A DNA stretch of 64,000 nt from assembly GCA_045837725.1 (NCBI GenBank), contig JBEWZL010000077.1, forward strand, positions 434,001-498,000, read 5' to 3'. The notes beneath the pieces were generated by a model, which did not search any database, had not been told where the DNA came from, and saw nothing but the letters and a program-made list of their open reading frames with translations. A program made the position numbers and the translations under genes. Shown piece by piece: positions 3,101 to 45,800 of the stretch (its first letter is position 1; every line of letters starts with the position of its first letter). The stretch comes from Vermamoeba vermiformis. Taxonomy: Eukaryota.

Positions 3101-5086
3101 ATGAACGCAATATTAGATTATGATATCGCTTCCGCGTTAAATCAAAGCGGCGCATGCGATTATTGTCACAAAAGGAAGATGCGCTGCGATAAGCTAAAGC
3201 CTCAATGTTTAGAGTGCTTAAAGCGAAGTATTCCTTGCAATTATGGAGTACGTCGAAAACGAGGACCTAAAGCAAAGAAACAAAAAGAGACTACAAAGCC
3301 AGCGACTCGGATTCAAAAAGCAGCTAAATCCAATTCTCAAGTTCAAGCGCTTCTATTCGAGTTAGAATTCAATAAGAAAATGGTAGAAATATGGAAGAGT
3401 ATTTCTTTGAATGAAAATGGCAATTTCAGCAATGCTAAACGATGTCGGCCAAAGTTCGATCCCGCCACTGAAGAGTTTATCAGATCACCCAATGCAGTGC
3501 AGACAATAATGGCAGAATTTGATGGAACATTCAGATTAGTATTTTATATGCCTAATTATGCAGCAAACATGGATTTTGCAACGAAGATCTGGCAAGCGTT
3601 GATTGACATTTCCGCAGGAGATTTACTTACAATGCTAAATACATTCGAATCGACACTACTAGCGTCCATATTAGAATATTACGTAGTTTTCATGCTTAGT
3701 AAGTTTTTTTGAAAGATTTTAATTTTGGATCTTTATTTGATCTGACAACAATTTAATTTCTTATAGGTCTGAAACTATCTAAATACAACGATATCGCCGA
3801 ATACGTATCAAGAATTGCCAATTATGTATTTGATTTGTTAATTTACGCCAGAGAAGATTACCTCACTTCGTACGAACAAACAGAGAAATTGCTCGCTGAT
3901 TTAGCCTTTGCTGCGCATTATTATAAGCTAACAAAAAATCACCACGCATTAACAGTCAATTCGTTCATATCGTGCGAGCTGTATAAAGATGCCAAGAAAA
4001 AATGGAAAATGCATAAAGATCTGGAAGCCAAGTAAGTCGCCCTAGTTTATAAATTAGTATAATATAACCACAATTATTGATCTATGATAATCAGTACTTT
4101 TTGCAATATCTAGCAATTATTTAAGAAATAAAATAAAAGAACTAATTGTATTATTCTTCAGGATGATCTGCCGAATGATTATGGCTGCTAAGAATGAAGA
4201 AGATCGAAAAGCATATGTTGATGCTATTAATGAATTTGATCCCGCCGAGGTCAGTCAAATTTTGATTTAATTTGTCGGATCCAGATCACTTACGCGCACG
4301 TTCTAGTTGCCAGCGCATGTACTTTTTATGGCTAATATATCCGTAACTATCGAGTCACTGCATAGCCAACAAAAGAATCTGGGGTAAGTCGCTGGATCCA
4401 GAACTTAAGTTCAATGCTAATGCGGATCTAACACGTTCTTTAGTGATGCAAATGTGGCTATTCAAAAAGCCAGTTATTTTGCCAAAGCGTTCATATTGCA
4501 AAGCAATGTCAGCGACCAAGGTCCAGTGGAACGCTATTATGATTCGTGGACTGGTGTCGTTCATTCTGAAGTTGCGATCCGGTCAGGTGACATTGAACTT
4601 TCACGAATCAAAATTGGACGACTATTAGAGTCATATTCAGTGATGCCAGCTCCTTTGCAACGATTACTCGTATCTAACATTGAAGTAAGTGTCACTTTTT
4701 GACACGTGTCAGGTGTCATCTTTTGGACTCGGATCCTGCGAACACGTTTAGCTAACGGTTGTTTCTTTTAGTTCTTCGAACACTCAATGAACGACCATAC
4801 CTTGCTAATTAAAGATTTCTTGCCGATGTTAAAAAACCAAGGCGTCTCAATGACACGAACATTGCCGTACGCGATGCTTTTGTCGACGACTTACCAACGA
4901 AAGAGCGATAGTGAAGAGGTCAGCGATAGTAGCAATGAGATCACCTCACCGTCTAATATTGAGCCACAAATGGGCAGTTCAAGCGAAGAAATTGCTGCAG
5001 TGTCAGAGTTCTATGATGTTAATGCAGATCCGTTTTTCGAATTTACTGACTTTGACAATAATATCATATTTAATACTAATTTGTAA
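3101..5086 (+). CDS. Zn(II)2Cys6 binuclear-cluster transcription factor, 5 exons
   Basis: ACDYCHKRKMRCDKLKPQCLECLKRSIPCNY matches the GAL4-type spacing. It is followed by a basic RRKRGPK segment and an acidic C-terminus; GT-AG introns link the ORFs. Confidence 0.9.
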
Positions 5087-7185: not shown

Positions 7186-7304
7186 ATCTCCTTTGTACGA
7201 AGTAGTGCTCGTTCTGAGTTAAATGCGTAGAAAAATAAATCGAAAAATTAGAGGGATATTTGGGTTCCCGAATTCAAAAAAACTGACGCCACAATTTTGT
7301 TTAT

Positions 7305-7401
7305 ACTTTTTAAGGCTAATATATTATAACCATGTAGTCCGAGTCACTTCATAGCCAGAAAAAAGAATCTCGGGTAAGTCGCTGGATCCAGAACTTAAGT
7401 T
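7305..7401 (+). repeat. Intergenic partial copy of an exon of the Zn2Cys6 gene (4321-4411)
   Basis: AAAAGAATCT(c/g)GGGTAAGTCGCTGGATCCAGAACTTAAGTT is shared between 4371-4411 and 7361-7401 (40/41), with weaker similarity upstream. Confidence 0.85.
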
Positions 7402-9617: not shown

Positions 9618-11404
9618 TTAAAGCTTGCCAAAAACGTTCTCTTCGTCGGACAAGTCGTCTTCTTGATCCGAATCCACCATTGGCTGCGACTCAAATTGGC
9701 TTACTAATCCATATTCATTCTTCTTTTTCAATTGCGATACTCCAGCCGCGCAGAGCGTGCAAGCAAGGAATACAAAAAGTGTCAATATGACACCTAAATT
9801 GACCGCGCCTCGGATGGAGTGAGCAGGGGTGTCAAAAAACCATCCGCCGCATTGATAAATCTTATCGTCCCAACCATCAGTCGGGAACAACACTTGTGAT
9901 CTGCATCGATAGAATTGACTCAGTTGTGTTCTGCAGTGTTGATTCACGCAGCTATTTGGCGGTGCTTCGATGAAATGATCGTACTCGAATTCAATCGTGC
10001 ATTGATTCTTGGTCATACATTCTTTTAATCTCTGCAATATATAAACATTTAGTATACTTCCACAGAAAATAACAGAAGATAAGAAAAAAAATTTCGGGTC
10101 GGATGCAGATCCGGATTTAATTTGAGCTCAAACGTGATGATATTCTTATAAGAGTCATAAATTTGATTATACGATAAAGATTGTTTAGGACGTACCTTCA
10201 TATGTCCAGTGCAATAAGGACCAGCAGACGGATTGACCTCGCATTGCAGACTCTGCGTCAAAGCGTTGCACTGACAGGCAGACAGACCAAAATCACACGC
10301 AGCGTCTTTGTGTCTGGTCGTGTTGCACGTCAGACCTTGTGACTCGTAACTGCGACACACGCCTTGCACGCAGAACAATTCTGATTTGCACGTGCGAAGT
10401 GCGTGACTGCATGGCTCGCCTTGACTCAGCACTACAATAATTAAGTTAATTTTGCGCAATTTCCTAATAAGGAAATGTAGATAAGATCAAGATCAAATTT
10501 CGAGATTAAATTTGTTTTCGTGGTTTACCTTTGAGTTGTGCCTGGCATTGTGGTGCTCGTCCATAATCTCCGAAACAAATTAAATTCTCCGCGCATTGAT
10601 TCTCAGACTCGCAATTAGTGCCCTAATAAAAAAAAAGTAAGATTTTTAGGATCCAATTTTTGTAACGGATCTGGGTTGATTTGAGTTACCTCTGATAGTC
10701 TTTCTTTACATAATGCTGCCTTAGTATCGCAATATAGACCAGGTAAGCAGCTTCTTTCGTCGCCGACAAAACACGGATCGCTCAGTTTTCCGCTCTGACA
10801 TTTACCATCATTACATTTAACGTTTGACCTCGATCCTATTGGAATGTAGCATTCAGTATCATCAGAGCATGATTCACCAGGTCTATAAATAGTTTAGTTA
10901 GCCGATCAGGTTCGATTTTGAAATGTTTTTTTGTGCGTACCCAACGAATCCGAAAAATTTGCAAGTGTTTGACAGACACCGCAATGAGAATATGTTTGAT
11001 AAGCAATCGATGTCTTTAGAACATGATTGGCCAACTAGATCTTCAGCATTGATGCATTGGCCCTGATGACAAGCAAGGCCAAGTTTACATCCGGTCCTGA
11101 AAAGAAGTAGTATTTAGTAAAATCGTAAAAAAATTATGATTATAATAGAAAGTTACTTAAACAAGGATTAAACGCGAATAGAACCTTTAAAATTAATTTT
11201 AATAATTTATTTTCAAATTTTCGGAATAATCAAATGACATAAGAATGAATCTACGCACCTTAAAGGAGAAATCAAAGCTCCTGAACAATTGCTATGCCTA
11301 TCTCCACAACTAATATCACCAGAGCAAACTTCTGCCGCCCTGATGGGCTGACAAAGTATAGCGCAAATGCTCCAAAGAGCAATCAAATAAGTATATAGCC
11401 GCAT
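9618..11404 (-). CDS. Cysteine-rich type I membrane (surface) protein
   Basis: Signal peptide MRLYTYLIALWSICAILCQP; repeated GExC...C...C...C modules; TM LGVILTLFVFLACTLCAAGV; acidic tail. Confidence 0.75.
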
Positions 11405-11687
11405 TATTCCCGCATACGAAGTATCGAGGTAGATATTACTGTTGTTGTTAATATCTCGCTCTTAAAAATCAAACAACCGAGTTTTCCATCTTTTTCTTTG
11501 CCTTAAAAATACGCACCTCCAGATTCTTAGCCTTGTAATGTTTAGGGAATGCGTAGCAATAGGGGTCTTAGATAGAATCGAACTGCAATTCAGGCTCATG
11601 ACGCCTTCTGAATTTTCGTTCAGTGCGCATTAAAATCGGTTGGCTTGTTCCTGAACAATTAATTTAACATACAAAACCATAGACAAC

Positions 11688-12225
11688 ATGTCAAGTGATC
11701 CAGAATTAGTATTTAAGTTGACTTACAGGTACGTCTATTGACGCATCTTCATTGGCTTGGGCTGTATCTAATTTTCAATTTGCTCAGCCCTTCCTGAGGC
11801 GGGATCCAAGAGTACTGCGCAGCTAAAGAAGCTATTCGCAGAACATATAAGACTGCAGAAACCGAGCACGATGAGACTGGGTAAGAAAAATAGAGATGAA
11901 AAGTACATCTGCTTTACGCCGTCTCCAATAATTATGATAAGGTTACTAATATTTCTCATAGTTATGGTACATTCATAATCAGAGCTATCAAGATTAACGG
12001 TCAGGACGTAGACTTGGAAATAATTTCGCTCGATCAAAGAAGGCTTTATCGGTATGTCATAAATTGCAGCTTTAAAAATTTCATTACATGATCTAAAATA
12101 TTTCATATATTAATTATTTTTCAATTTACAGCAAGTACCCTCATTGGCGTAGCGAATCTCAAGACAAGATCGCTCAAGTAGTCAAAGAAAAGATCGAGGA
12201 GTACTTGAAAACCCATCAAAGCTAA
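11688..12225 (+). CDS. Selenoprotein, Rdx/SelW-like thioredoxin fold, 105 aa, Sec17 (not in the ORF track)
   Basis: Exons 11688-11728, 11788-11880, 11962-12051 and 12132-12225 are all GT-AG with consistent phases. They translate to MSSDPELVFKLTYSPSUGGIQEYCAAKEAIRRTYKTAETEHDETGYGTFIIRAIKINGQDVDLEIISLDQRRLYRKYPHWRSESQDKIAQVVKEKIEEYLKTHQS*. The TGA is at 11795-11797 and a SECIS lies downstream. Confidence 0.85.
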
Positions 12226-12275
12226 TGTAGATATTATATTTGTACATATTGAAGCTGTCTGCTCGTGCAGTTGAA

Positions 12276-12358
12276 GCGCATTCATAGTGGCGAATGAAAT
12301 CCGACACAAAAAGCATTATAAATGTCTGTTTCGGCATTGACAGTCCTCTATGATGCGT
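12276..12358 (+). promoter_or_regulatory. Eukaryotic type II SECIS element
   Basis: Helix I 12276-12290 / 12345-12358; ATGA core 12294-12297 opposite TGAC 12338-12341; helix II of ~10 bp; unpaired AAAA at 12309-12312; apical mini-helix GCATT/AATGT. Confidence 0.85.
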
Positions 12359-12730
12359 TGCGATTGCTATTGATGCGACGGCAATCAGTCCTATCAAATA
12401 CAAATAAAAATTCGTATTTTCGGATGCGGCCCGATCTCACCTCTACAAGCTGCCTCCATCTCTACTAGCTGCCTTGTGGTACGTATTCAAATCTATAGTT
12501 CTTCAGTGTCGTAACTAACTTTCCGTCATGATTGCGCATCTACCAGGGTCAATTACCATATTTAGCTGAGCGTACATAAAGTTTATTGTACAAAATCGCG
12601 ATTTACAAAGCATTATTGTCGACAGTATTGAATACATCATGTTCTTATTGATTCTATAGCGATTGTGAAACCAAAGATTTACTTTCGAGCTTGCGAAATC
12701 TGGAAGCCATCGATTGATCAAGACTCGAGA

Positions 12731-15700
12731 ATGAAGAAGCGTCATTTAGGCATCTTTGGATGGAATAAAAAACGGCTATCTGAAAAGAAGTCGAAGGTGA
12801 ACTCCAAAGAGCTGAAACCAACTTTGAAACAGTTGCACGATGCGATCTACGAAGAAAAGATAGCACAAGTTAAACAAATAATAGAAGCGGACGCAGAATT
12901 AATAAATCAAAAGAAAAATGCCAGGACTGCATTGCATGTTGCTGCTAGAAGCGGAAACAGCGAACTGGTGGAATTGTTACTCGCTCATGGAGCCAACCCG
13001 AATATTGCTGACGATGCGGGATGGACTGGCATTCATTGTGCAGCATTTTCTGGAAATCTAAAAACGTTGGAAGCGCTCATTAAAGACAAGAATGTGAATC
13101 TGGCCGTAAAAAATGCGGACGAAAATACCGCCTTGCATTATATAGCAAGGCATTGCATGGATGTGCCTGATTCTATCCTTAACGAGTTCATCAAGGTTCG
13201 TATTATTTCTTATATGATATTGCATTCGTTCAAAAAATCTCGATAGCAGCTAAACTTTCGGATCAGGGGGGAATCGACGTGAACGCGCGGAATTCGAGTG
13301 GCGAAACCCCGCTGCATAATTCTTGTTGGAAGGGGAATGTTAGGATAACAGAATGGCTGTAAGTAATGATTTAAAATTTTAATTTGTACTGATCTTCCGC
13401 AGCTTAAAAAATAAAGCAAACACTGAAATACGGACCGACAAGGTAATCATTTAATATTAGAGTCTGTCAAAATATTCTAAAGTAACATGCCTCTTTCATA
13501 GCAAGAGACGCCGTTGCATTGGGCTGCAAGAGCAGGGCAAACCAAAATTGCCGAAATGCTGATCGCAGTAGGTGCATCGTTAACTGCCTCTGGTAAGTCG
13601 GAATACTTTATGTGAGTATAAAATATATTTATACATATTCTTAAGGTATTGAGGGAACACCGTTTGAAGTTGCTGTACCGATCGACAAACTAAAAAAGAT
13701 GCTCAAAGTGGATCTTAGCGCAGTCGTCAAAAATACACCAGAAAGCAATGCCAACAATAATAACAGCCTAACGATAGGAAGGCGCGATGTTAAATCAAAT
13801 AGCGTTGGATGCGTCGAAGACGGTACAAATTTATTGACAAAAACGCTTGATATTCCCTCGTCAGGTTCGTATAGCATCACACTGACCTCATATCTCTATT
13901 TTACTCGTATTAACGTTAATTAGGATCCTCCAAAATCAATTTGTTGAATTCGCCAATTAAGGCAATTCCACCGTTATCACCAACGGCTCCACGAACGAGG
14001 AGTAGCAGTTTTAGCAAGGCTAGTAATAGATTATACCTTAAAGATGAGCTATCAACAAATACGTAAGTAATTTTTGAAAAAAATTGTTACAAGCAAAGAT
14101 CCGCTTCGTCATTATTTAGCCAGCTTAAGATCTAATACCAATTTTCATTTTAGTAAATCGGACAGCCGTATTAAATTAGAAGGACAAATGAGAGCCACAT
14201 TAGAGGCAGAATTAATCGACGAGCTTGTTGAATTCTGCAAGACCAACTCATTGCTAGCGATTATTTCAAAAGTATTAGAATCAAAATCGTGGAGTTGGTC
14301 AGAAAAATATGAAGACAATAAGATTGAAATGCTTAAATGGATTTGCGAGTTCGTCGAAAAAGACAAAAAATACCAGTACGTTTAAACGACTAACTATTTT
14401 TGTATTTGGCGTAGTACTAATGAAAATTATAACGATAGATATTTGGAATATTTATATCTGAAATACAAGGATAAGATCAAAATTGAAGTCAAAGATACTG
14501 ATGAGTCGTTCTCTGACTCGGATGAGCATTTAGCATTTAGCAGTGCCTCGTTCGATTCCTTGGATACTTCAGACGCAGTAAGTAGCATAAATATAACATT
14601 AATATTCCTTAGGCCTGTTATTAATGTATTTTGCTAGTTTACTTCTTCGCCTGGGACTTCAGTTTCATCGGCTGATGAAGGTTACATGAGGAAATCCAGG
14701 CGGCTGACTCTACGCGAAAAGAAATTAACGCCATATAGTTGGGAATTAGATTTGAACGAGTGTATTGCCAGCGAAGTTATAGGTCAAGGCGGATTTGGTC
14801 TCGTGTACCGGTACGAAACTTATGACCAGCATTAGATATTCAGTAATATTTAAGCTAATGATTTCTATTATTATAGAGGTTCATATAAGAACGAAGAAGT
14901 AGCGATTAAGCAGTTAAAAACCGATGAGCTGGGCGATGACGATATGATGGCTTTTCTGAAAGAAATCTCAATTATGAGCTCGTTGAAACACGAGAATATA
15001 TTGAAATTTAAGGGCGCGTGCGTGGTAGATGTTATTTGCTTAGTTACCGAGTTCGCGCACAAAGGAGATCTGCGCACGTACTTGCTGAAGAACCAAGTGG
15101 ACACGAGCAGAAAACTCGACTTTGCTCTTCAAATAGCCAAAGCGATGGTAAGTATCATAATGTTGCTATTATTGTGCATCGTTACTAAGTATTGTTCTAG
15201 CACTATTTGCATTCGCAAGATCCGCCAATCGTCCATCGAGATCTGAAATGTTCGAACGTTTTGGTCGATAAGGATGACTGTATTAAAGTGTCTGATTTCG
15301 GCCTGAGCAAGCACGCGTCGAGCGGTGGAAACACGCGAATGGGCACACTGAATTGGATCGCGCCAGAAATTCTCAGGAACGCTGGACCCTTCACTGAGAA
15401 AGCGGATGTGTTTTCCTATGGAATTGTTGTGTGGGAGATTTTCACCAACGGACAAATACCATACCAAGGGCTACAACCTCTACAAATAGTTCGAGCCATT
15501 GACGAAGGCGTACGACCTGAAATGTAAGTCACTGATTGCATCCGGACCTCGCATCTATTAATAATTGCTTTAATTTATTGGCGCATTTGATTAATGTTTG
15601 TTATTCTAGACCTAGTACGGTGGAAGAACGAACAAAGAAGTTAATAGAGCAATGCTGGGACGATGACCCAGATCAACGACCTTCGTTTGTACAGATAATT

Positions 15701-16363: not shown

Positions 16364-19106
<2,743 letters not shown>

Positions 19107-26128: not shown

Positions 26129-29100
26129 TTAATCATCCTCAGCAACAATCAACGACTCGCGATCCTTCTTTGAAGCCTTGCTACTGGCTCGCGAAAGTTT
26201 GCCGCTCTTAGCACCACCTTCTTCAGTCAACAATTTGTCCAAGAGTTCGTTCATGGCAGCACCAGTGTCAGCCTCTTCGAATTCATTGAACGCCTTGCGC
26301 AATCTCTTTTCGCTTCGTGCGATGTGTTGTTGCATGTAGCCCAAGGCGTTGGTTTTGACGTTTTCGGGCACTTCGAGTTCCATATGCATGTGAGCGGTGT
26401 GCACTCTTTCAGGGTCCTATAATCAAATACATTAACACCTATTATTATACCAATCATACATTTTCTTAAGGCCCTCGAGTAGAATATAAATATGATAAGG
26501 CCGCATATTTTGATGATATCCTAGTATGGAAAAGTACGTACCAAGAGTGAGGTATAGAAGTTTTTGATCTTGGGAATGTTGCGGTCAACAAAGTCAGCAA
26601 CTTTCTCCATGTATTGTTCCTTAGTATTGACTGAGGCCATGTTAGCCAAGTTCTGCAACACTTTAGCGATCAAGACCAATTGTCTTTGCACGACTTCGTT
26701 GGGGTTTTGTTGCAACAGGCCGTAGTATTGAGGAGCAGTAATAGCCGGGCAAATGAATCGCAAGAACAAGAAGCCTCCGACTGCCTTGTAGACGGCGTCT
26801 TCTGAACCAAATCGCATCTTGATGGCCGATTCCATGCGCACGAAAAGATCACGGAATTCCCTGAAAAATACGTTAGCCTATTTGATCTGCTAATTTTTGG
26901 CAAGTTTCATGGTACTTACGAAGGCACGTTTTGTTCGTTCTTGATAATAGCACTCAAAATCTTTTGACAGGCAAGAGCAAGTTGAATAGCGTTAGATTCA
27001 GTATCAGCATCGGGGTTGCTCAACTTGTTCGGATCGAGCTCCATTTCAATGTTCAACAAACTAGCGCCGTTTTCAGGGTCTTCGGCGACAGGCGCATCTC
27101 CGTCAACATTGGCTCCGGGACGAGAGAAAGTCGAAAGTTCGTTGATGACGGTGGCCAAAGTAAAGTACAAGTACTTAGTACCAACCATTTTAGAGTAGAA
27201 TCTAATAATAGCTATGATTAGTAACAGCTTTCTATTGTTAAAAAAGAGTAGGTGTCACGTACTTGAACATTTTGCTGGCCATAGAGTTCTGACGGAAAAT
27301 TGTGTTTTCACTGCCAGAGTTGATAATTTCAGTCTGACAGAAGTACTGCAACACTTCGGATGAAATGCCACGTGATTGGGCCAAGAAGATGACAGCACGT
27401 GCTACAGCGTCTTGTTCCGTGGGATTGGTGATATCGAACAAAGTCGACAAGAACGTACGGTCTTTGTTGAGCAAGATATCCTCCAACAATCTACAAAAAC
27501 ATTCATTAGATCTGTTAATATCAAGATAGAGGCGTATATTACGTACTTGTTATAATCTCCGTCTTTGAATTGTTCTTTGGAGTCGGTCTTAAAGGCGACT
27601 TCAACGTAGTCAGGCTCAACGACCGTGACAACAACACCTTGTCTTCTTCTTCTGCGACGAATGAAGAAGATTGTCAAGAAGACCGCACCACCTGCAATGA
27701 CGGCAGCGGCAATGACAACACCAGCAATGAGACCAGGGTTCGTTGCGGCAATGACGCTCGGGTCTGAGCATTCACCAGAACCCCAGCTGTCAGCGGCACA
27801 TTGATCGGCTGACGAGCACTTGTTGTCAGAGAAACACCAGTTACACAAGTTCTTCTGTTGACATCTGTTACAATCCCTCTCGAGACTGCAATCTGTAGGC
27901 GAATAATTAGGCATTGGTATTATATAAACTGATTGAGTTGGATCGTACCGAGATACTGGAAGTCGATGGGACCAGCAAGAATAGTGCCGCGATAGATAAT
28001 TGTCAGCGGAACAATGCCATCAACAGCTACTGAAGGAGGTGTGCAAGTGATGCTGCTGTTTGATCCCGTAAGAGCATAAGCAGGAACGCTAGCGGTACCG
28101 AATTGGCAGTAGAACGGCGAGTCAATCGTTGATTGCAGTACACTACGACGAGACTGGGTCGTGTTAGGTTGCAACTTGTCCAAGATCTCCAAGGGTCTGT
28201 TGAAGGACACTGTGATCGGCTCAGTGCCGTTCAGAGTGACAAAGGTGGGCGTGACACTGAGAGACAAGCACGAGTCCAAGAAGATGCCTTTTGAGCTGCA
28301 TCGGGCCTCACCAACACACGTCTGATCACCGACGCACCAACCGCAGCCAGTTTGAGACATGCAAGAGTCACCGCATTGCGAGATCGACGTAGGATTGCAA
28401 CCGAAGAACGAAAAGTTAAGACTTCTTCCCGTGTAGTCTGCGTTGTTGAGCAAGACACGGAGCTCAACTGTGCCAACGGTGTTGCGCGTGCTGTTGGGAG
28501 TGTAGCACTGCACAAAAGTGTCTTCTACGGTGACGACAGGCTGGTGAATATCGCCGAAAGCGCAAGACAAGAATGCAATGTTGTTTTGGAAGAAAGGACC
28601 GCCATAGATAGTCACCAAATCGCCACCTTCAATTTCACCTCCTGTAGGACGAGAACGCTCCAAAACTAAAATAAGACATTAGTTATGTGAGCAGGAGTTA
28701 GGTTAGGTCCCTCTATTTACCTGGACAGCTAGTAAGGGCAGGGAAACCTGTTGGGTTGCAATCAAGTGCGCAAGATCTAGCGCACCAGCCGCATCTAGGC
28801 TTTTCAGCAGTGAGGCACGTGTCGCAAGTAGATGAATCAGTGCATTCTTAACGAGTGGTTAGTAATCACAAACTGATTTGATATAGTGAGAACGACTTAC
28901 TGTAGTAGTAGAAAGGAACAGGATTGGTGTAGGCAGATCCGAAGACTTGGATTAAGACTGAACCTGTGCCAGTGGTCGGTGATGCCGGTGAAATACAGAA
29001 GACGTTGCTACGAGCAATGTCAACGAATGTAGCTTGTGTCACGACAACATTATTATCTGAAAAATCGTTAGTTTTCGGATCTAAGTTAGTCGGTCAGATC

Positions 29101-32100
29101 TTACTTGGCAGAGTGAAAGAGCATGTGACGTCGGATATTTGAAGGCTGTTGAATGAAGTTAAGCTGAGCGGACCATTCAAAGCAACGTTTTGGCCGCCAG
29201 AAACTTCATCACGGTTCGGCGAGGCAGTCAACAAAACTGGGTTACTCGCGTCAGTACACGGATCCAAAATTCAAGTTTTATCACTTACTAGGGCAACTCT
29301 CGACTTGAGCAATAGCTGCTGAGCATGTACTAGTATAGAGCTTGCAGCCAATGCCATTGGCTTCAGAGCTGCACCAGCGGCACTTGGGTCTCAAGACGTC
29401 ATCAACGCACGTGTTGCAAGAAGCACCCGTGCAATCTGAAGCACGAAGAATATTTAGCCTATCGATACATAACTCGTCATTATATTGAAGCCGTACCATA
29501 AATCACGTAGCTGATATCTGGGGTCAGTCTGACTGTGTTGTCTTTCCAAACACTCAACTATAAGCAAAAGTTAGTTCAGTGAAACACAAATGTAGCTAAG
29601 TAAGAACTTACTGAGTGAGTACCGAGTGTCAAAGTCGTTGGAAGGGCACATGTAACGTTCTTAGTACCGCTGTTGTACGTCGCGGTAGTAACTTCAGATG
29701 CGGTGGACAAACCGGTCGCGTCCCACGCGCAAACTAAGCTCGCGAACTGCGCACCAGCAATCAAGAAATCTCCTGATAAAGTGACAGTAGGACCGCTAGC
29801 AACATCGTCTATGTGCGTTGAAGGAGGATAGACCGCAGTAACGACTAAAAATAGCATGGATTAGCGGATGCGAGTAGTTTTGGCGCGGATCTTTAAACTT
29901 ACCAGGGCAAACGGTTAACGCAGTGCAAGTCGTAGTGTTTTTGTAATTGCAAGCGCTATTTTGGGCGCTGGAACAGAAGACGCATTCGGGTCTAGTCGCT
30001 TCGTTACAAGCCACGCAGTATTGGTTTACCGTTGCGCAATCTAATGAATGGAATTTTCTTAACTAGGCAACAAAAAATAAACATTGAATGCAGATCCGGA
30101 ATTACCATAAAACATGAACGTTGTGTTGGTCGTAGCATAAGGAGCTCCGCTGTAGTAAAGAGTAACGGGTACATTCTTATCAACGGCTCCGTTTCTTTCC
30201 GTATCAAACGTAGTCTTGTCCATTTGAGGAGATAAGCACGAGACTTGGTTGGGCGGAGTAATTGTTGCTATAAATAGATGCGTTAATTAGGCCTAATTTA
30301 ACGTGGAAAGTTACGAAATTACGTACCTGGAACTCGTCCAATAGTAGTCAAGTTAAAATCGCATTCAATTGACTCGCTGCCAGTCAGATCTGGTTGAACG
30401 TTGAACGTTACACGAGAGCCTATCGATTAAACGTCATTAATAATTATACTTTTGTCAGATTGAAGCCTTTAGACACTTACTGGTGCGAATAGATGAGCTG
30501 GCAGGTGAAAATGAATTGACCGCTAATAAAGGAATAATTAATCAATAGTTTGATGAATATACGCTTATACGTACCAGGGCAAGTTCTCAAAAGCGAGTCC
30601 GTGCAATTAACAGCAAATCTGCATCCACCAACTGACGGGCACCATCCGCAACTTGGATGTAAGGACAAACAAGATCCGCAATCCAAATTGTTATTGCAAT
30701 CTACGGATCGAGCTGTTAGTTCGCCACTTATAAAATAATAAATATTATGCTAATCATACTTATCACTTGAACAGAGGCTGTCGTATCAAAAGGCAAAAGA
30801 GCATCAACATTGTACAATCCGGCAGTCCAAGTTTTAACGGCCGGCGATAATCCCGCTAAAAAAAAGGTTAATAAAATGGTATTTGGAATATATGATAATA
30901 GTTTCTTACAAAAGCCATTCGTTGGAAGGTCGCAAACAAGTTGAAACGGAGACAATGAAAGAACGTTCGAGAATCGTGTACCGTCACCAGTCCATCTGCA
31001 GAGAGCGCTCAATCGATCAATTCCAGGAACAGGATAACTGCCGTTGAATGTAAGGTAATTTCCTCCCACCATCGCCGTACGATTTAACGAAGGCTGATAA
31101 TCGATGGGGTTTGGTCGGATTTCGGCAGAAGCTGAAAAAAAATATTAACAAAAATGTCGCTTAGTGGTCGCTAATATTCTTACCAATGCACTGTCTGATA
31201 TCGTGTTCACCAGCACCTTTCCAATCAGGACAAAAAATACTGTCGAAGCGAGTTTTGCATTTGAGCGAGGACCAGCAATAGCCGCTACAAATATTATTTT
31301 AATAATTTTATATAGTAATAATAATATAAAGAGAGTACTAACCAGTATTCTGGATCCAATTGCGTGCATTGTGCGCAAGAATAAAAAACATTATTGACCT
31401 CAGTACTGCATCCTAGTCATGATAAAGTTATTAAGAAATGATACTAACATAGCATATTAAGCTTAATACGTACTGGTATGAGTTACGATGACCAAATTGA
31501 CAGAGGCTTGCGTACGACTTGCGCCAACGAGATAAGCGTCGGTATTCGGAATGGCGTAAAGCGCTCTAATTTCAGGATAGATCAGGACAGCGGGAGAGAC
31601 GGAAAGATATTGAACTGAGCTGAATGGCTGGAGATTTCGCAGATTGACTCGAACGACCATTGCGCGGTCTGTGGCTTGAGCTGTGTCATAGAAAGTTGCG
31701 GCCCAAAAAGAAACATCGTGGCCGTAATCTAATGAGATAATTAATTAATAAGATAACTTAGATGTATAATAATGCAATTAAGGGGTACCTATTGACGCAG
31801 CAGTGAGTTTTGTACGAGGAATGAAGGAAAAGCGAGTGAATACGAAATCAGCCGGAGAAATCTCGAAAATGAGACCAATGTCTGTGCCCATAAGAACTCT
31901 AGCGCGAGTAGGATCAAAGGCAGAGCACGTGACCTAGCAATATTATGTTATATATAAAGAACAATAAAATAATTATTATCGAAAACGCACTTGACCGAAA
32001 CCAATAGTTTTGCTTTCAAAGAAAGAGGTGATTAAGCGAGTGTTGCTCGTTGGTGTCTTCCAAATACTTCCTCCAGCTCCTCCCATTAAGATCTATAGAG

Positions 32101-33304: not shown

Positions 33305-36300
33305 ATGAAGTATTCACAGTGTATTTTTATCGCACTATGTTGTGCATCATTATGTTATTTGGCGCAAAGTCAAGATATTGGATTACCAACGGCAGGGATG
33401 AGAGTAAGTGATTTTAATCGAATCTTTGCCACCATATCGTGCACGAATATCACGTCGATGAATTAAAATTATTTGATTCATATTATTCATAATTTCACTT
33501 GCAACAAAACAAAACAAATTGGATCTATAAATAACTCCCTTTACAGTTATCACCCAAAAATTATTTGCACATACCCTTTATCTCCAAGTAATGCCTTATC
33601 GCTAATTGCACGTGTTATTAGGTCTCAAGCTATCCCACATTCCAAGGCGCCAAATCTATCAAATCCGTTCTGTCCTTCTCATTCTCAAACGGCACTCGTT
33701 TCTTCCTTTGGGGTGGCAATAAATTACATATGGTAAGCACCATGCAAATAGCATACATTTCTGTGTTGTGTACGCCAACGGTACACGCGCACATTCAAGA
33801 GCCGCAAAATTTTTATTATGTAGCCACCTCTGAATCGTAAACACCGATGGATTACATATACTCATATAATACTATAGAGCAAAGATACTCCCGATGCCGT
33901 TCCTACGGATTTATGGACCGCTCCATCTTCGTCAGACTTCATCCAGAGCATTAACTACGACGACAAACGAAGTTCAGGTAAATAACCAATTTAATTAAAT
34001 TATACAATATTATTCAAGTCGATTCGTGAGCTAGAAACACTTGGAGTAAGTTCTAACGGATTTGTTTTTTGAAATCTAGTTCTCTTCTGCACCAATGAGC
34101 GCACCTTGTGGACTTATAGCTGGCCCAACGGTCCTGCAACTCAAATTGCTTTCGACCCTGCCACTCAAACGGATCCTTTATTAGTAAGTCTCGCGCGCAG
34201 ATTCGTTCTTCAGGATCCAGTTCTGAGGCTGACTTTGTTCTAGGGATGCATCTATGATTCAACGAGAGATAATTTGTGGTTCATTGCAGGAGGAATTGCT
34301 GTTTCCAAATCGCCAGTTACGAGCAGTAAGTTGGATTCGGGATCGAGCCGTTTCGGCATTATTCGTGCCATAAGGCTTGTTTTAATAAGCATCTTCACAT
34401 AGGCGCAGGCAACACAACGGCGTTCACTACCTCTTTACCATTGAGCGGTGTCTCTTCGATTGTTCTTGACTCGCAGAATGGCAATGTATTGTGGACCTAC
34501 GGCACGGCTCAAGTTCAAATGACGCCGCTTAGCAACGCAAACTTGGACCCCTCTTTCATCTCCTCGCAGTCGTTGGGCATTGGTAACGTAAGTAACAACC
34601 ATGAGACTCGCATGCCATCGTAGAGGAGCATTTTTTGAAAGATCTGAACCAACTTTCCTTCTCGCTTAATTGTGCTCCTATACATAACTAAGCACGCTCA
34701 GAGGCCACTCTTATTAATATGGTTCTTTTATGTACAGATCTTGTCGAGCGCTTACGATCCGGTTCAACAAGTCGTCTATTTGGGAACTGACTTGGGTATT
34801 GGTATTGAAGTATTAACCGTACCGTCATTGGCATTCTCTAGATACTTCATTTTGCCCAATATGCAATACTCATCAATCACCACTGGTATGACTCACATTA
34901 TTCTTTTTTGTGGCTTCTAGAAGATTTAATTAGTTTGCTAATGCTACTTTATAGACCCCTCGCACGGAACCTCATTTTGGGCAGGCTACCAAAACACTTC
35001 CAATACTCAATTCGTTGTTAGAGTTAACGCGGATCGCTTCTCGCCTTTTTCTGCGGTTTCAGTCACTGGCACTGATAGACTTGGTCCTGCAGCTATTGTT
35101 AACAACTTGAACTCATTGTGGACACCTTTCTTCTCACCATCCAGCGCACTTTTCGCCAAAATTCAACTCACAGGTAAGTTCCGGATGCAGCAACAAAGCT
35201 GAATTTTTCCTAAACTTACGCTTTATATTTAGATTGCGGCCTTTACGTCTGCCAACAATGCCTTACAAATGACCCTCAATATTGCGGTGTTTGTTCATCA
35301 GGTCAAGTTTGCACGCTCTCATCTGCTTGTTCAGCCACCTGGCAAACTTCAGGCACGATCAGTTGTCCCGTTGCTGGTGCAGTTGTTCCGCGATCGGGCG
35401 GTACAGAAGGCGGTGATCTTATAACTATTACTGGCCAATTCTTGGACAACAACGAGCTTCTGGATGCGTCTCAAACCACGTGCACTTTTGGATCCGCTGA
35501 TCCCGTTACTGCCTCAACAGTTGCAGCTACTTTTATCCAATGCCGCTCTCCTGGTTCAACCGGTACGTAATACATTACGAAGCATTAATCAAGACGTTGC
35601 TAATAGCCAAAACTAGTCGCGGGCCAGGTCAATCTACAAGTGCGTTACAAAGGCAACAACTGGGGTTCTGCATTGAACTTCACTTATATCAGTAAGCGAC
35701 CATTAACTACGTACTATTTGAACATATTAACTAATCATTTAAAGAATGCGGTGACTTCAGCGGATGCGACGTTTGCACGCGCAATCTAGGTTGCGGTTGG
35801 TGCATGGCTAGCGGTCAATGTACTTCCTCTTCAGCGTGCAACCCCTTGTCCACATGGAGCACTGTCTGTCCTGCTATTTTGGGCATTGCTCCTGCTCAAT
35901 CTTCCATTCGTGGCAGTAAGTTTCTTAAAGTTTCAAGAACTGGCCTACGCGGAGTTTCTTATCGAATTTTGTTTTTGCAGACGTTGTCGTTCAACTTGAC
36001 GTTGTTCCGCAATTGACCAACGAAATGCAATACAGCTGCGACTTTGGATTTGGATCTGGCGCTGTTGTGCCTGCTACTTTGGTGTCTTCATCCAAGCTCT
36101 CGTGCTCGACGCCAACAATCAACTCAGCAACTTGGACAGCTATGCAAGGCAACACTAGCGCTGTGACATTAGGCGCGTACTTGACCTCCGTGTCTCTGCT
36201 TCAAGGTGGCAAATACATCACGTCCTCAGCCCCTCAAACCTTTGCCATTTATGGTAAGCTACTCGACCTCATTTTTAAAGCTTTGAACTTACCTTTCATT

Positions 36301-39300
36301 GGTAGATTGTCCCACTCAATCCAAGCACTGTGATGGATGCGGCGGTGTCGCTGGCTTCACTTTCTCCGAGTGCAAGTTCTGCTATGACTCGGCTGTCACT
36401 CAGTGTCAGTACTCCGATGGAAGTTGCACGGACTCGTCAGGCACTTGTCCCAACATTGCCTCATTGACCCCACCCAGCATGCTACAAGGAGACTCGAGTG
36501 TTACATCAGTGGCACTTAGTGGCTTGTTCTCGTTCACTGGATCTACTCCCATCACCAATCTTGTCTGCATGTGGGACGTAGAGAATACGGCTACCGCGGC
36601 CAATGCTCAAACTGCCTCGGGCATCACAGATACTTCTATCACCTGTCCTGTCCCTGCTTCGTTGCCTCTTGGCACCCATACTGTAATCCCATAATAGATG
36701 CTCTAATTGTCGCTTACTAACATTGGTACAGGTGAGTGTTTGGCGCGATGAAGGAAGTGGATCTTACTCTCGTATTACTTCGAACTCTGACTTCCTCGTC
36801 TACGGTAAGTGTTTCTATTGATAATATACTACATGGTGTCTCACATACTCCTAGATTGCTCTGCTACTGGTCCTTGTTCCTCGTGCGTGTCAGATCTCAA
36901 GCCCAAATGTTACTGGTGCAGCGCTAGCGGACAGTTATCGTGCAAACCAATCGCGGATTCATCGTGCTCGGCTAGTGCTATTACTAACAGCACTCAGTGT
37001 CCAGGTAAGTTCCGAGTTAATTAATTTTGGCGGGATTATTCCCACATCAAATCTTTTAGATTCTAGTACAAAAGTGTCAAAATTAACTTTAATTCGTCAT
37101 TAACGTCAAATCCAATCAATCTAACGCTTTTTTTCAGTCTTGACAAGTGTGACACCGGATGCTGAAGAAGTCGCCGGAGGATCTGCGCTTACTTTAAGCG
37201 GATCTAACATGAAATTGCTATCTTATTCCAATATCAAGTGCCAGTTCACCAATGACGTCGATAATTCAGTTCAATTAGTGGCGGCATCTCCTCCTGTGAA
37301 CGACAACCTTTTGCGCTGCAATGCTCCTAGCGTTAGTACTGCAGCTAACTACCACATAGACATCTTAGTTGGTACTGTGACTCACACGAATAAGATTCCT
37401 TTCATTTATTACCGTAAGTTTACTTCCACCCAGATCGAGCACGATCCGTTACAAATCTTAACTGAGCCTTATAATTCATGCCTTACAATTGATTCGCATT
37501 TTCGTTGTTATTGCGTCGTTGGAAGCTATTTTTAACTCATTTTCTATTCTAGAATGTTCTGCTGAACCTAGCTGCGCGAACTGTCTTGTTGCTCGTAACA
37601 CTCGCTGCAAATGGTGCCTTGGCTCGTGCGCGACACAATGTGCCGTGCCTACTCCTGTCACATGCCCAAGTAAGATTCAAGACTTAATTTTTCTAGCATT
37701 ACTAACGAGTTTTCTAGAAATCAACATTACGGATCCAGTCGAGTCGTACAACAAGGGCGGTCAAACCATACGTGTATATGGTGGACCGTTCGTGAGCTCA
37801 ACAAGCTTGACCTACACGTGCAACTTTGGTGGTGAATTGGGCGTTGTCACTAGTGTTTCTGACGCGCACCTTGAATGCTTGACACCGACACGTGGTGGCT
37901 TTGCTTCGTTCGAGGGTAATGTGGACTTGACTATTCTCGCCAACGGTGCGCCGTACACTGAGGACCCGTACCCCTTCAACTTCTTTGGCTGTCCTATCTT
38001 GCCTTCCGCTACTGCTTGCGGCTCTCAATGCACAGCTCGTTCTGGATGCGGCTGGTGTGTCTCGCAGTCAACGTGCACAGTCGACTTTATGTGCAACACC
38101 GAACAAGACTTCTTCATTGACAAGTGCTACAGTACGTATTAGCTTATAAGAAACCGATCCGGATCTAACTTTTTTGCCAGATGTCACTGTGACACCTAAC
38201 GTCATTCGTGCTGGCTCGAACCAAACTATCACCGTGCAGTTCAATCAGCCCTTGCCTTTCACATTCACATCTGATCCTTTCTTCGGCACGACGACCGGCA
38301 AACGCTCGATCTTGGCTAGTACTTCTACAAACCCGACGATTTCTTGCCGATTTGGCAGTGCTAGTGTTGCTGCTGTCCCGAACTTGAGCAACAACCCCGA
38401 TTCATTCACGTGTCAGTCCCCTGTCATTCTTCAAGAGGGTAACTTGCCGTTCACTGTGCTCTGGAACGGTAATCCGCTCGTCGAATCGGTCGACTTCCAA
38501 ATCACAAGTACGTATCACTTTTGACGCTACAAAGGCCGCGTATTAATCTTATTCGTTTAGACTGCGGTGGCTACAACACTGATTGCTCGCAATGTATCCA
38601 ACATCCTTACTGCAACTGGTGCTTCGAGAGCAACACGTGCTCAGAGGCAGACATTTGCGCAGCTGACAAATGGGGAGGAGCTCAATGTCCTTCAGTCATC
38701 GAAACTAATCCTCAAGCACGTGCTGGCCTCATTGCTGGTGTCGTGATTGGTGGTGTTGTGATCATTGGTGGTGTCGTCTTTTTGATCTTGTTCCTTCGTT
38801 ACCGCAAAAAGAAGCAACAGGGTCTTGTCGTCGACTTCAAAGAGCCCGATTACACCGAGGTTGCTTTCAAGAACGAAGTCACCCTGCAGTACAAGATTAC
38901 TGCTAAGGACGACTATGAGTATGTACCTAAGAGTTGTTAAATTTTTCACGTGATCCGGATCTGACTTTTGTACAGGGAGTTGGAGAACATCTTGATGAAC
39001 CGTGACCGTACCTTCCTCAAGGCTGTAGCTGCGGTGACAAGCGCTACTGAAGATGATGCTGTAAGTACAAGATACTGTTCATAGAGCCATGAGCTAACCT
39101 CGTGAAACATAGGTCTCGCGTTCTTTGACTTTCATCGCTCACAAGCGCAAGGTGGCCTCAGACATGATTCAATACTTCGCCTCCGATGAGGTTATGAAAG
39201 CTAGTAAGTAGTCTCAGTTATAATTGTCCTACTGCACACGACGCTAACTTCATTTTAGAATCCGAAAACACAATTTTCAGACAGGACAGTTTGTCCAGTA

Positions 39301-40600
39301 AGATGTTCAAGTACGTAGTAGTCACTTTCTTATACGTCAATGACTAGTATACTAACGCGTCACTCGTTCAGGTACTACTCCAAGATTGTTGGTACTCGTT
39401 ACTTGTTCTTCATGTTGGCGCGTGTCATCAACGAGTTGAACGAGTTGGCTGAAACTGCCGCAGCGGCCGAGAACAAAGAGAGTAAGTTCAATTAATTAAG
39501 CTCGAGTAGACTTATTAAGATATTAATTTTTGTTTAATAGACTTGCATGGTAGCAGCGCTAATTTGTTGTCAATGTCCGGCACCACTACGGATCCGATGT
39601 CACAAGGTACCAACGATTTGACTGCTAGTGAAGGTGGAAGCAAGAGAAAATCAACCAAGAAGAAGAGTGTCATTGTGTACGAAGGTACCGAGATTAATCG
39701 TGCCTCTGCTAGTTTGTTGAACTTCGATATGGAGGTAAGATCCAGATCTGTTTGACACGTGTCACTTTTTCCAAGTATTAATATTTTATTGTTTAGTTGG
39801 ACCCTGTCTTGCTCGAGAACAAGGAAGTCGATACTGAAGCAAACGTCTATCAGTTAGAATTGGCCTGTCAAAAGATTCTCACCGTGATCATTAACAACGA
39901 GAACAAAGTGCCTCGGTAAGTCATTTTTGAATGTCTATTGCAATAGTACAATGTATTAATATCGTTCTATCCATAGTGAGTTCCGCGAGATCTTTGTGCG
40001 TATTGAGAATGCGATCAAGTTGAAGTTTGGTAACGAGACCGCGGCTTACAAGGCAGTCGGAGGCTTCTTGTTCTTGCGATTCATTTGCCCGGCTATTACT
40101 GTGCCTCAATACTACGGCCTTATTTCTGAAATTCCTAACAAGAAGTGTCAACGTCAATTGATCTTGATCGCTAAAGTGCTGCAGAACATGGCTAACTTGG
40201 CGACTATGTCACACAAAGAGACGTTCATGAAAGACCTCGAGGGATTCATGACGAAGAACCAGCCCAAGTTCGTTGACCTTTACCAGAACTTACTCGTACG
40301 TGCATAATTATAGTGTCTTATGTGATTGTGATTAGTACTAACCTGTTTTGGTTCAAACAGAACCCCGAAAAATTGCCCGACGCCCGTGCTAGACTTTCGA
40401 TTGAAGTGCCCGAAAATGCACGATTGAACTCACTCGCGTACATGCACCAGCACATCCACCGCAGCGAAAAGAAGTTGCGCACGTACTTTGAGCACTTGGC
40501 TGAACAAGACGCTGACAAGGCGAGAGAGATGAATAAGTTGCTCGATGAGATTATGCAAAACTACGGAGAGCCGCCAAAGAAGAAGAGCGACGAGAAATAA
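33305..40600 (+). CDS. Plexin-architecture receptor B, paralog of A
   Basis: Signal peptide MKYSQCIFIALCCASLCYLAQS; same PSI/IPT order as A. TM GLIAGVVIGGVVIIGGVVFLILFL. RasGAP motifs TIFRQDS, MELDP, GFLFLRFICPAI, AKVLQNMAN. Confidence 0.9.
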
Positions 40601-42861: not shown

Positions 42862-45800
42862 CTATTTAGCATAAGACTTCTGGCACTTCTTAAGATTCTT
42901 CACTAACATAGCGAATGACGGTCGTTTGTTGGGGTTATGTTTGGTGCACAAACGGATCAGATCCACAAACGCGGGGAATTCACGCTCTAACTCAGGAGGC
43001 ACTGGAGGAGCATTACCTTCCTATAATCGAAAAATAAATCAATAAAGTTAAACTGTTCCAGCAGCAAAATCAGGAAATGAAATTTGACACTTTGACACTT
43101 AACGGATTCGGATCGATTGACAAGTAAATCGTATTGAGTTAAATATAGAAGTGATTGACAATGCGTTCTATATGAATTTCAAAGCTTACCTTGACGTCAT
43201 CAAGCGATCGATCAGGCAATCTGTTCATCAACAACTCCCACAGAATGATACCAAAGCTGAACACGTCAGCCTTCGCAGTGTAATTACGTGAAGTCAATAC
43301 TTCAGGAGCCATCCAGTTGTATGTTCCCGTAGCGATCGTCATGTTTGTTTCGGCAGTACGACTTTCACCGAAATCAGCAACTTTCACTGAAAGATTGTCG
43401 TCGACCTACAGCGGATCCGATTAGTCAGATCTAATTTTTTCACAGAACGGCAGTTTTGACGTACCAACAAGTTCAAGCTCTTGAGATCACGATGAATTCT
43501 GTTGTTGCTGTGCAAGAAACTCATACCACGAGCAGCTTCAATGGCCATTTGAATCTTTTGGCCCATTGACAACCACTTACGACCGTCCTTGCCCTTTGAA
43601 AGGTGGTTAGTACTCGACAGTTGCCATATTTGGTAATCGTACTTGTTTGCCCAAAAAGCCGTCCAAACTGCCGCCAGAAGCGAATTCAGTTAACAAGAAA
43701 GCATTGCCAGGCTCAGAAGCACCTCCGATAAACATCAACAAGTTCTCGTGGTGAAGCAATCTGTACACGTGTAATTCCGCCAAGAAGTCACGTGGAGGTG
43801 GATCTCGTTTACCCAAATCCCAATTCTTGCACGCCACTAAAAAGGTAAGTTAGATCTTAGTTGATCTGATCCACACTTTGCGTGAGATCTACATACCTTT
43901 AGCGCCATGCACACCGGCTAAAAATACAGAGGCACTAGCACCACCGCCGAGACGATTAACAATTTCAACGGCCTCTCGCGGCACGTGCCAGTAATCGTCT
44001 ACGGCACCTTGGAGAAGTTGCGTGGCTGAAGCAGATACTCGCAATGGGAGTACGAATGATTCGATCAAATCGCTTTCCTCGACTAAAAATTAAGTAGCAT
44101 TAGGCACTGTCAAGGAATGGACGAAATTTCGTGGACTTACTTTTGAATGTAAGAGTCAAAAGTTTTCGCAGATCAAGTGGTTTGTACAACACGACGGTGA
44201 CCTTGATGACAGTGTTCTTAGGATCAACTTGACCCTCGGCAGGACTAACAGCCATAAAATATGAACGATTGAAGTCTACGGAGTTAGGCACAGTGCAGGT
44301 AACTTTTCCTTTCCAAGAGTTCGTGACTTGGACCGAGAAAATAACAGGCTTGTTCAATTCGACGTTTTTCTGAATTAATTGGTACGATGATATCTAGAAA
44401 AATATTTAAATTAGTTTAGTAAATCAAGGTAAAATGTTTTTGAGATCCGGATGTACCTTGATAGATGCGGACTTTAACTTCTTCTTAGTCTTTGAATTCT
44501 CTGCGTAATAAGTCTTATGTACTTTCTTTTGAATTTTTTCGGTTTCTTCAGGGGTCATATTTAACATGGTGTCCAACAAAACCTTCGTTTCATCAGCGTT
44601 GTACTCGGACTTGCAACCCCTACACATCGAATACATTAATCAATCTATACTATCCATATCGATATTTATGTATTAGATACGTACTTGAGCAAGTATTGAG
44701 TAAGTTGTTCTTCACCTGAAAATAAGTAATGGTTAGATCTGGTTGAAAAAGTTTGGATCAAGCATTGGTGACTTACCGAGTCTTTGACTGGGACGCAATG
44801 GCGGGAAGACTTTAACGTTCTTATTGTTATTATCAAGGTCGTTGAGCAAGGCAACGGACAAGTAACGTTCGCTTTTTTCTTCGTCTTCAGTCTGAAAGTA
44901 GATGTAGTTAGTGGATGCGGAGCTCAATTGAAGCGGAATAATTTTGTTTAGCTTACCTGAGACAAAGACACAGCGTTATCGTTCTTGAAAGGATATTTAC
45001 ACCAGTTGCTATTCACACGAATAAAGTCGTCAATGTCCGCGTATCTTTTGTCTTCGAAGGCAAGTTCAGTGCCACCCACACGCTTTACATACATTAGAAA
45101 CCATATGAAAATTACTATATGGCTACGCACCTCCAAGCGGTAGTTCATGATACCCTCGGGCAAGACTACAGACAAAGTGTAACAGCCAGGCAAGCTGCTG
45201 AAGCGCACGAGGAACGTGCCAACAGGCTCGTCAGACACGAAGTACTTTGTTTCTTCGACATCAAAATCACCGAAGAAGAATCTAAGGTACATATGTATGA
45301 GTCTTAAGCACGCCATTGTAGTGAAGTGTATATGCACTTACGGCTTGCGTGCCATCTTGTCTCGGCAAGGTGTGATGAAGAACTGTGAGTAGTGCTGCAC
45401 GACGTGAGTAATGGACGGGAACAACTTCAATGTCTCGCCACCATCTCCTCCTTCACGCATACCGAACCTATTTAATAATAAGGTTAATTTTGTGGTGCCA
45501 ATTTACCTTTGCGGACGTACCCTCCAGGATGAGTTTCGACTTTCAGTGAACCGACCATTTCTCCAGTCTTGTAGTTAATGGCAAATGAACCAGGATCTGA
45601 CTTGCTGAAACGAACCAAAAATGTTCCGTGCTGCTCCGGTTCGAGCAACTTTTGAGCTTCAGCGTTGGTCAAGAAACCGTGGAACCATTCTTGTGTCATC
45701 ACACTGCGCACCTTGTCGAGCGATTGTGACAAAGGACCGAAGCCCTTGAGGAATTCAGCCCATTTGTACACGGTCACGAAGCCAGTGTCCGAGTTATCTA

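Follow-up and report, generated by a model that had tools for sequence, protein, structure and literature searches.

A candidate SxxU selenoprotein gene with a type II SECIS-like hairpin in Vermamoeba vermiformis

Introduction

Annotation regularly overlooks genes for selenoproteins by taking UGA for a stop, as is noted in the available passages of PMC3753652, and the locus considered here raises the question of whether an in-frame TGA conceals such a gene. A preliminary description, made from the letters alone, had proposed that it does: four exons would give a 105-residue protein if one TGA is read through, and a type II SECIS element would follow the stop codon. We have followed up this proposal by asking whether the exons look like coding sequence, whether the hairpin looks like a SECIS, whether relatives can be found, and how well other readings of the TGA and of the locus account for the same observations. 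Throughout, "the window" refers to the whole stretch of 64,000 nucleotides that was analysed, and all positions are counted from its first letter.

Results

Gene model

The plus strand from 11688 to 12225 can be read as four exons (Table 1), whose joined coding sequence of 318 nt comprises 105 codons and a TAA. A script working on the window coordinates thereby reproduced the four phase-consistent GT-AG exons of the preliminary description and its 105 residues with the TGA read through. The motifs quoted there (LTY, PSUGG, YGTFII, and QRRLY with KYPHW across the exon 3/4 junction) are all present in the exon translations, and the translation of exon 2 contains both the Ser in place of the resolving Cys (S-P-S-U) and the Cys seven residues past Sec.

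Table 1. Features of the candidate gene and its presumed 3' UTR, in window coordinates
Feature	Position	Strand	Description
Exon 1, coding part	11688..11728	+	41 nt; codons 1-13, the last three reading LTY, and 2 nt of codon 14
Intron 1	11729..11787	+	59 nt, phase 2; donor GTACGT; CTAAT-like motif upstream of CAG
Exon 2	11788..11880	+	93 nt; SxxU motif, Cys at +7, predicted helix after Sec
In-frame TGA, proposed Sec codon	11795..11797	+	Codon 17
Intron 2	11881..11961	+	81 nt, phase 2; donor GTAAGA; TACTAAT before CATAG
Exon 3	11962..12051	+	90 nt; N-terminal YGTFII; probably a beta hairpin
Intron 3	12052..12131	+	80 nt, phase 2; donor GTATGT; 18.8 % GC
Exon 4, coding part	12132..12225	+	94 nt; KYPHW and a charged C-terminal stretch; TAA at 12223-12225
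SECIS-like hairpin, type II	12267..12367	+	Presumed 3' UTR; from the fold, a pattern-energy scan and the alignment to Rfam RF00031
AATAAA, possible polyadenylation signal	12403..12408	+	Read from the sequence; putative function

The TGA is the sole internal stop of the spliced frame, and the start codon at 11688-11690 is the earliest ATG downstream of an in-frame stop in the same frame. The three introns are all GT-AG and all in phase 2 (59, 81 and 80 nt), and intron 2 contains TAA, TAG and TGA in frame. Each of them matches a loosely defined intron pattern in which a YTRAY branch-like motif precedes YAG. This pattern, which matches stretches of up to about 130 nt only, occurs 181 times in the window and 95-138 times in block shuffles, a modest enrichment of about 1.6-fold. 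Downstream, the AATAAA lies 36 nt beyond the hairpin and about 330 nt upstream of the first ATG of the next gene, the next plus-strand ORF spanning 12632-13246. No paralogue or repeat copy of the gene was found within the 64-kb window.

Coding signal and composition

Coding potential was scored with a table of codon log-odds trained on 18 long ORFs of the window (3809 codons). The proposed frame is the top-scoring frame in all four exons, and the whole coding sequence reaches 0.224 bits per codon, as against 0.012 and -0.070 in its two remaining frames and no more than 0.029 on the reverse strand. For reference, in-frame pieces of the training ORFs score 0.176 +/- 0.049 and out-of-frame pieces -0.035 +/- 0.069 bits per codon; just 1.1 % of 5000 random 318-nt pieces of the window equal the score of the candidate. 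Exon 2 scores 0.235 bits per codon in frame versus 0.054 and -0.189 in the other two frames, and exon 4, at 0.308, has the highest in-frame score among the four. As would be expected of a selenoprotein gene, the UGA thus interrupts an otherwise open frame that keeps its coding character downstream. The translations of exons 2, 3 and 4 contain no Met codon 3' of the TGA in this frame, so that these well-scoring 88 codons would be out of reach for internal initiation. By the same codon log-odds, the overlapping minus-strand ORF at 11768-12109 scores as non-coding.

Base composition separates the exons (42.5 % GC) from the introns (29.1 %). The 54 nt around the TGA, from 11788 to 11841, have a GC content of 55.6 %, which falls inside the range of the long ORFs and is higher than in all 177 of the 177 54-nt windows taken from intron-like stretches (mean 33.9 %).

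These 54 nt bear directly on one alternative, namely that the gene is real and its main product bypasses the TGA by splicing, the hairpin having some other role or none. Brute-force enumeration yields 229 stop-free upstream structures that lead into the frame of exons 3 and 4, and the two best of them reuse the strong donor at 11729. Skipping of exon 2 would join exon 1 to exon 3 through a 233-nt intron and give 74 residues, a change that is frame-neutral because exon 2 is 93 nt long and the introns flanking it are in phase 2; an in-frame AG acceptor at 11841 would remove the first 54 nt of exon 2 and give 87 residues. However, the sequence to be bypassed is exon-like in its GC content, and its best coding score is in the frame of the TGA. 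The acceptor at 11841 has no branch-like motif, and the 233-nt intron would be longer than all of the intron-like stretches found, though the upper limit of the pattern itself tempers this comparison. Bypassing the TGA also gives no account of the SECIS-like features of the hairpin described below. On the strength of the exon-like GC and the in-frame coding signal of the 54 nt, we therefore keep exon 2 in the model, and we regard a main product that avoids the TGA as unlikely.

A second alternative leaves the exons as they are and has the TGA read as a standard amino acid, either under a variant genetic code or by programmed readthrough that does not involve selenium. If TGA is treated as sense, the window contains 186 ORFs of at least 100 aa; if TAA is treated as sense it contains 215, and under the standard code 83. 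TGA as a general sense codon in the window was rejected on this comparison, as it lengthens ORFs no more than TAA does. Several long ORFs, two of them with a Pfam match, are moreover bounded by TGA, and we consider decoding as a standard amino acid to be very improbable at this locus.

The SECIS-like hairpin

Folding of 12255-12375 gives a single long stem-loop with a minimum free energy of -34.8 kcal/mol. In its core, AUGA (12294-12297) faces GA (12339-12340), and a small internal loop separates the core from helix I, a long helix in whose 5' strand 27 positions are paired. Helix II (12298-12308 / 12327-12338) extends over 11 nt with one mismatch and one bulge. Above it, the apical adenines AAAA (12309-12312) are unpaired, and a helix III of 5 bp (12313-12317 / 12321-12325) is closed by a loop of 3 nt. 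The fold is present where the preliminary description had placed a SECIS, but its boundaries differ: it starts 42 nt after the stop codon rather than 50, and it ends at 12367 rather than 12358.

How distinctive this layout is within the window was assessed with a pattern-energy scan of both strands, in which ATGA had to be followed 9-13 nt on by an unpaired AA, a closing pair had to stand beside the 3' GA, helix II had to have at least 8 pairs, and the lower helix had to lie within 9 nt. The pattern was found at 18 sites on the two strands, and the hairpin at 12267-12367 ranks best by a wide margin, with energies of -6.1 kcal/mol for the upper part and -30.1 kcal/mol for the lower helix; the total of the best rival is -22.7 kcal/mol. 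In dinucleotide shuffles of the whole window, with 8-20 pattern matches per shuffle, none of the 30 reaches either the two energies of the hairpin or their total. The hairpin is present in a single copy in the window, with no repeat.

The Rfam model SECIS_1 (RF00031) aligns to 12285-12350, from 60 nt after the stop codon, over model positions 1-64 of 64, with AUGA, AAA and UGA on the consensus positions. The score of 19.9 bits, obtained with the hairpin alone as the query and laxer filters, is below the curated gathering score of 35, with an E-value of 0.058-0.076 over all 4227 families; by our own arithmetic from the tool's definition, the single-family expectation is about 0.01 matches for the whole window on both strands. 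SECIS is not reported when the whole window is searched at gathering scores, and an E-value run of Rfam on a 1.2-kb stretch gave no SECIS match. Under the same small-stretch settings as for the hairpin, neither of the two next-best pattern sites (minus strand, ATGA at 17710 and 34559) matches SECIS_1.

Three further features can be set against the SECIS reading or qualify it. The z-score of the fold relative to shuffles is just -1.87. A helix I of such length and stability is unusual for a SECIS. The third is in the core: the available text of PMC3753652 gives the SECIS core consensus as UGAN/KGAW, together with apical adenines and the extra helix of type II elements, and the 3' core here reads UGAC, while KGAW wants A or U in the last place. 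With this one deviation, we find past the stop codon a stem-loop that has the core, the helix II length and the unpaired apical adenines of a SECIS. The claim of a type II SECIS past the stop is thus upheld in its layout, in its rank among the pattern sites and against the shuffles, and falls short at the gathering score of SECIS_1. Its distance from the stop codon lies within what is found in fungi, whose SECISes begin about 40-420 nt past the stop according to the available part of bioRxiv 10.1101/314781.

The position of the hairpin also bears on the possibility that the locus has decayed into a pseudogene, or that a gene with a Cys codon has recently acquired a nonsense allele in which TGT or TGC has become TGA, so that translation ends after 16 residues. 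It takes a single base change to turn a Cys codon into TGA. However, the locus has no second defect: beyond the TGA, the splice junctions, the frame and the coding score are all preserved. Nor would a Cys gene be expected to carry a correctly placed SECIS-like element, and a decayed or newly broken gene seems to us quite improbable.

Searches for relatives

Protein searches were made with the peptides of single exons, with the ORFs in which these exons lie, and with one exon 2-3 read-through. In the latter, intron 2 is translated in frame between the two exons and its stop codons are written as X. Each query had at most 60 real residues, therefore only fairly close relatives were detectable and the negative results are weak.

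At E-values up to 10, Pfam returned no family for the partial queries exon 2, exon 3 and the exon 2-3 read-through, and just two unrelated weak matches for exon 4. NCBIfam and the PDB sequences gave nothing relevant for the exon pieces or the read-through, exon 4 resembling no more than designed helical repeats and similar helices. In a word-indexed protein search, the 63-aa ORF that holds exon 3 gave no candidates, and the 42-aa ORF that holds exon 4, compared with longer proteins only, gave four candidates, none of them at an E-value up to 10. In an exhaustive phmmer search of 1.84 billion representatives, the sole match of the read-through was a 1908-aa repeat protein, which we rejected, as the match covers query residues 28-57, nearly all of them translated intron. 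Bacterial and archaeal genomes contained 73 pattern matches, of which none was confirmed, and the protein atlas held no usable match to exon 3 alone. In sum, the partial queries, with their at most 60 real residues, found no homologue that has Sec or Cys opposite the UGA and is conserved past it.

AlphaFold2 was run on the exon 2-3 read-through and returned an unusable model, with a mean pLDDT of 43.9. This low-confidence model places a helix immediately behind Sec and two strands in exon 3, which agrees with the earlier picture of the protein and proves nothing.

That no homologue was detected for any exon favours the view that there is no gene here at all, and that short open stretches have lined up by chance beside an unrelated stable hairpin, for instance a small-RNA precursor or a regulatory stem ahead of the next gene. 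A weak match of the hairpin to a plant miRNA precursor model (20.6 bits versus a gathering score of 70) points in the same direction, as does the small size of the excess of GT-AG intron-like patterns in the window over shuffles. Against a chance origin stand the agreement of all four exons on the required frame, the clear contrast in GC between exons and introns, the occurrence of AUGA, AAAA and GA at exactly the places that a SECIS requires, and the non-coding score of the overlapping minus-strand ORF. We consider the absence of any gene improbable in the light of these features.

Genomic surroundings

The window is eukaryotic and its introns are short. A Pfam scan of 48 of its ORFs identified Zn2Cys6, ankyrin, TKL kinase, IPT/TIG, PSI, RasGAP, SH2, amino-acid transporter and 2OG-Fe(II) oxygenase domains; no domain of the Sec machinery (EFSec, SBP2, PSTK, SecS, SPS2) was found among these 48 ORFs, and no tRNA gene, tRNA-Sec included, within the 64-kb window. 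With its SH2, TKL kinase/ankyrin and IPT/TIG-PSI genes, the mix of domains suggests an amoebozoan-like or some other unicellular eukaryote more than a fungus; Zn2Cys6 is compatible with fungi without being confined to them.

Directly downstream of the candidate, the plus strand encodes ankyrin repeats (12632-13246) and a TKL kinase domain (15201-15527), and the two ORFs are possibly parts of one gene (12632-15527). A search with the kinase ORF returned generic clusters only; for the 405-aa oxygenase ORF nearby, relatives with 67, 58 and 56 % identity were found. Upstream, the minus strand carries Cys-rich ORFs at 9618-11461, one of which weakly matches the EB module, with an E-value of 9e-4 that does not reach the cut-off. 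Between this Cys-rich minus-strand gene and the ATG of the candidate lie 226 nt that may serve both as a promoter region.

Farther away, the regions 26255-30650 (minus strand) and 35792-40522 (plus strand) contain divergently oriented multi-exon paralogues with pieces of IPT/TIG, PSI and RasGAP domains. They are 30-60 % identical by tblastx over many collinear blocks, and one DNA block of 228 nt is 78.5 % identical; to all appearances, a receptor-like RasGAP gene has undergone inverted duplication here. On the minus strand, neighbouring ORFs of one gene at 44948-45843 encode two classical SH2 domains (PF00017), which would be unusual in a fungus. The plus-strand ORF at 17958-18908 (316 residues) is rich in Glu, Gln, Arg and Ala, its antisense frames are open too, and it probably encodes a coiled coil or a stretch of low complexity. 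On the plus strand, 4320-4411 and 7304-7401 form a direct repeat of about 99 nt with 85 % identity.

Discussion

The proposal of a hidden selenoprotein gene is supported by the coding potential of all four exons, the exon-like GC content around the TGA, the lack of a downstream in-frame ATG and the SECIS-like hairpin; set against it is that the partial queries found no homologue. Weighing these, we think it probable that the locus is a real four-exon gene, so far without annotation, for a selenoprotein of 105 residues that is decoded through a SECIS of the canonical type. Such a gene is plausible as an addition to a known kind of gene, and calls for no new mechanism.

In the selenoprotein reading, selenocysteine would be inserted at the UGA of codon 17 owing to a type II SECIS hairpin in the 3' UTR, and the core of this hairpin would lie about 335 nt beyond the UGA once the mRNA is spliced. 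Its role would be to bring in the SECIS-binding protein and the Sec-specific elongation factor, the established mechanism in eukaryotes, which we assume to operate here as well. To judge from its predicted features, the product is most likely a small redox protein with a thioredoxin-like fold, in which Sec would occupy the loop between the N-terminal strand and the helix, as it does in the Rdx (SelW/SelH/SelT) group. With Ser in place of the partner Cys of a CxxU motif, an intramolecular CxxU selenenylsulfide would be impossible, which would leave Sec as a lone nucleophile. Glutathione, a partner thiol or the Cys at +7 could resolve it, the last of which would be placed roughly two helical turns further along and possibly on the same face of the helix.

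If confirmed, the gene would add one more selenoprotein to the proteome of a microbial eukaryote, and the organism would be shown to have the Sec trait. It would also provide a natural SxxU variant with which to probe the second redox residue of small thioredoxin-fold selenoproteins. New selenoprotein families still turn up in protists, 3 of 42 families in algae being new in the available text of PMC7539508, and the find would therefore be useful rather than startling.

Comparison with known systems

The hairpin shares with eukaryotic type II SECIS elements, as represented by RF00031 and by the available text of PMC3753652, the AUGA/GA kink-turn core, a helix II of about 11 nt, the unpaired adenines, the extra apical helix and the location in the 3' UTR. 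It differs from them in its sub-threshold Rfam score, in the C after the 3' GA and in its very long helix I.

An active site of the form T/SxxU is known from selenoproteins of the peroxiredoxin/AhpC type (PMC1794560, in the part of that source available). The candidate has in common with these proteins a hydroxyl residue three positions before Sec, but it has only 105 residues, and its pieces gave no Pfam match of this kind. Peroxiredoxins are clearly longer, at about 160-200 residues, and neither a peroxiredoxin-type profile match nor the larger domain size is found here. In the passages available from the literature on SxxU selenoproteins, the motif is discussed for bacterial families, namely peroxiredoxin and a putative mercuric transport protein, and by title and abstract we found no paper on point about the selenoproteome in Amoebozoa.

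The preliminary description had pointed to the Rdx group (SelW/T/H/V), an assignment that we could not confirm: the pieces match nothing in this group in Pfam, NCBIfam or the PDB sequences, and the Cys of CxxU is a Ser. Rdx is reportedly a thioredoxin-like selenoprotein family comprising SelW, SelV, SelT, SelH and Rdx12, and we take its Pfam model to be PF10262. The fold is thioredoxin-like and two-layered, with the order strand, helix, three strands, helix. The candidate follows what we take to be the Rdx pattern, with a strand ending in Tyr, xxU-G, a helix, a later strand of the form G-x-F-hydrophobic, and an aromatic-Pro motif before the presumed C-terminal helix, a qualitative rather than a computed likeness. 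Both are small proteins with Sec near the N-terminus between a hydrophobic strand and a helix. In contrast to Rdx proteins, the candidate has SxxU for CxxU, so that the position between first strand and helix fits a CxxU/CxxC motif and the Cys itself is absent (S-P-S-U); it has a Cys at +7, a longer strand hairpin, and a C-terminal block without a recognised match. Rdx/SelW-like membership is thus best treated as a lead. A bolder proposal is that the protein is the founding member of an undescribed eukaryotic selenoprotein family, that is, an Rdx-like single-selenol enzyme of about 105 residues with an SxxU site, which lacks the partner Cys of CxxU and is resolved by the Cys two helical turns downstream or by an external thiol. 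We offer this as a tentative possibility and are inclined to doubt it.

Two likenesses to members of the Rdx group concern the gene rather than the protein. In mammalian SelW, exon 1 ends immediately 5' of the CxxU motif (PMC3316567, in the available passages), and intron 1 of the candidate is likewise located right before the SxxU motif. The other is with SelenoH, an Rdx-type protein, of the Sec-using early-branching fungi, likened here by description rather than by sequence comparison: as portrayed in the available part of bioRxiv 10.1101/314781, its gene shares with the candidate a small product, a microbial eukaryote as host, short introns, and a history of being missed by annotation.
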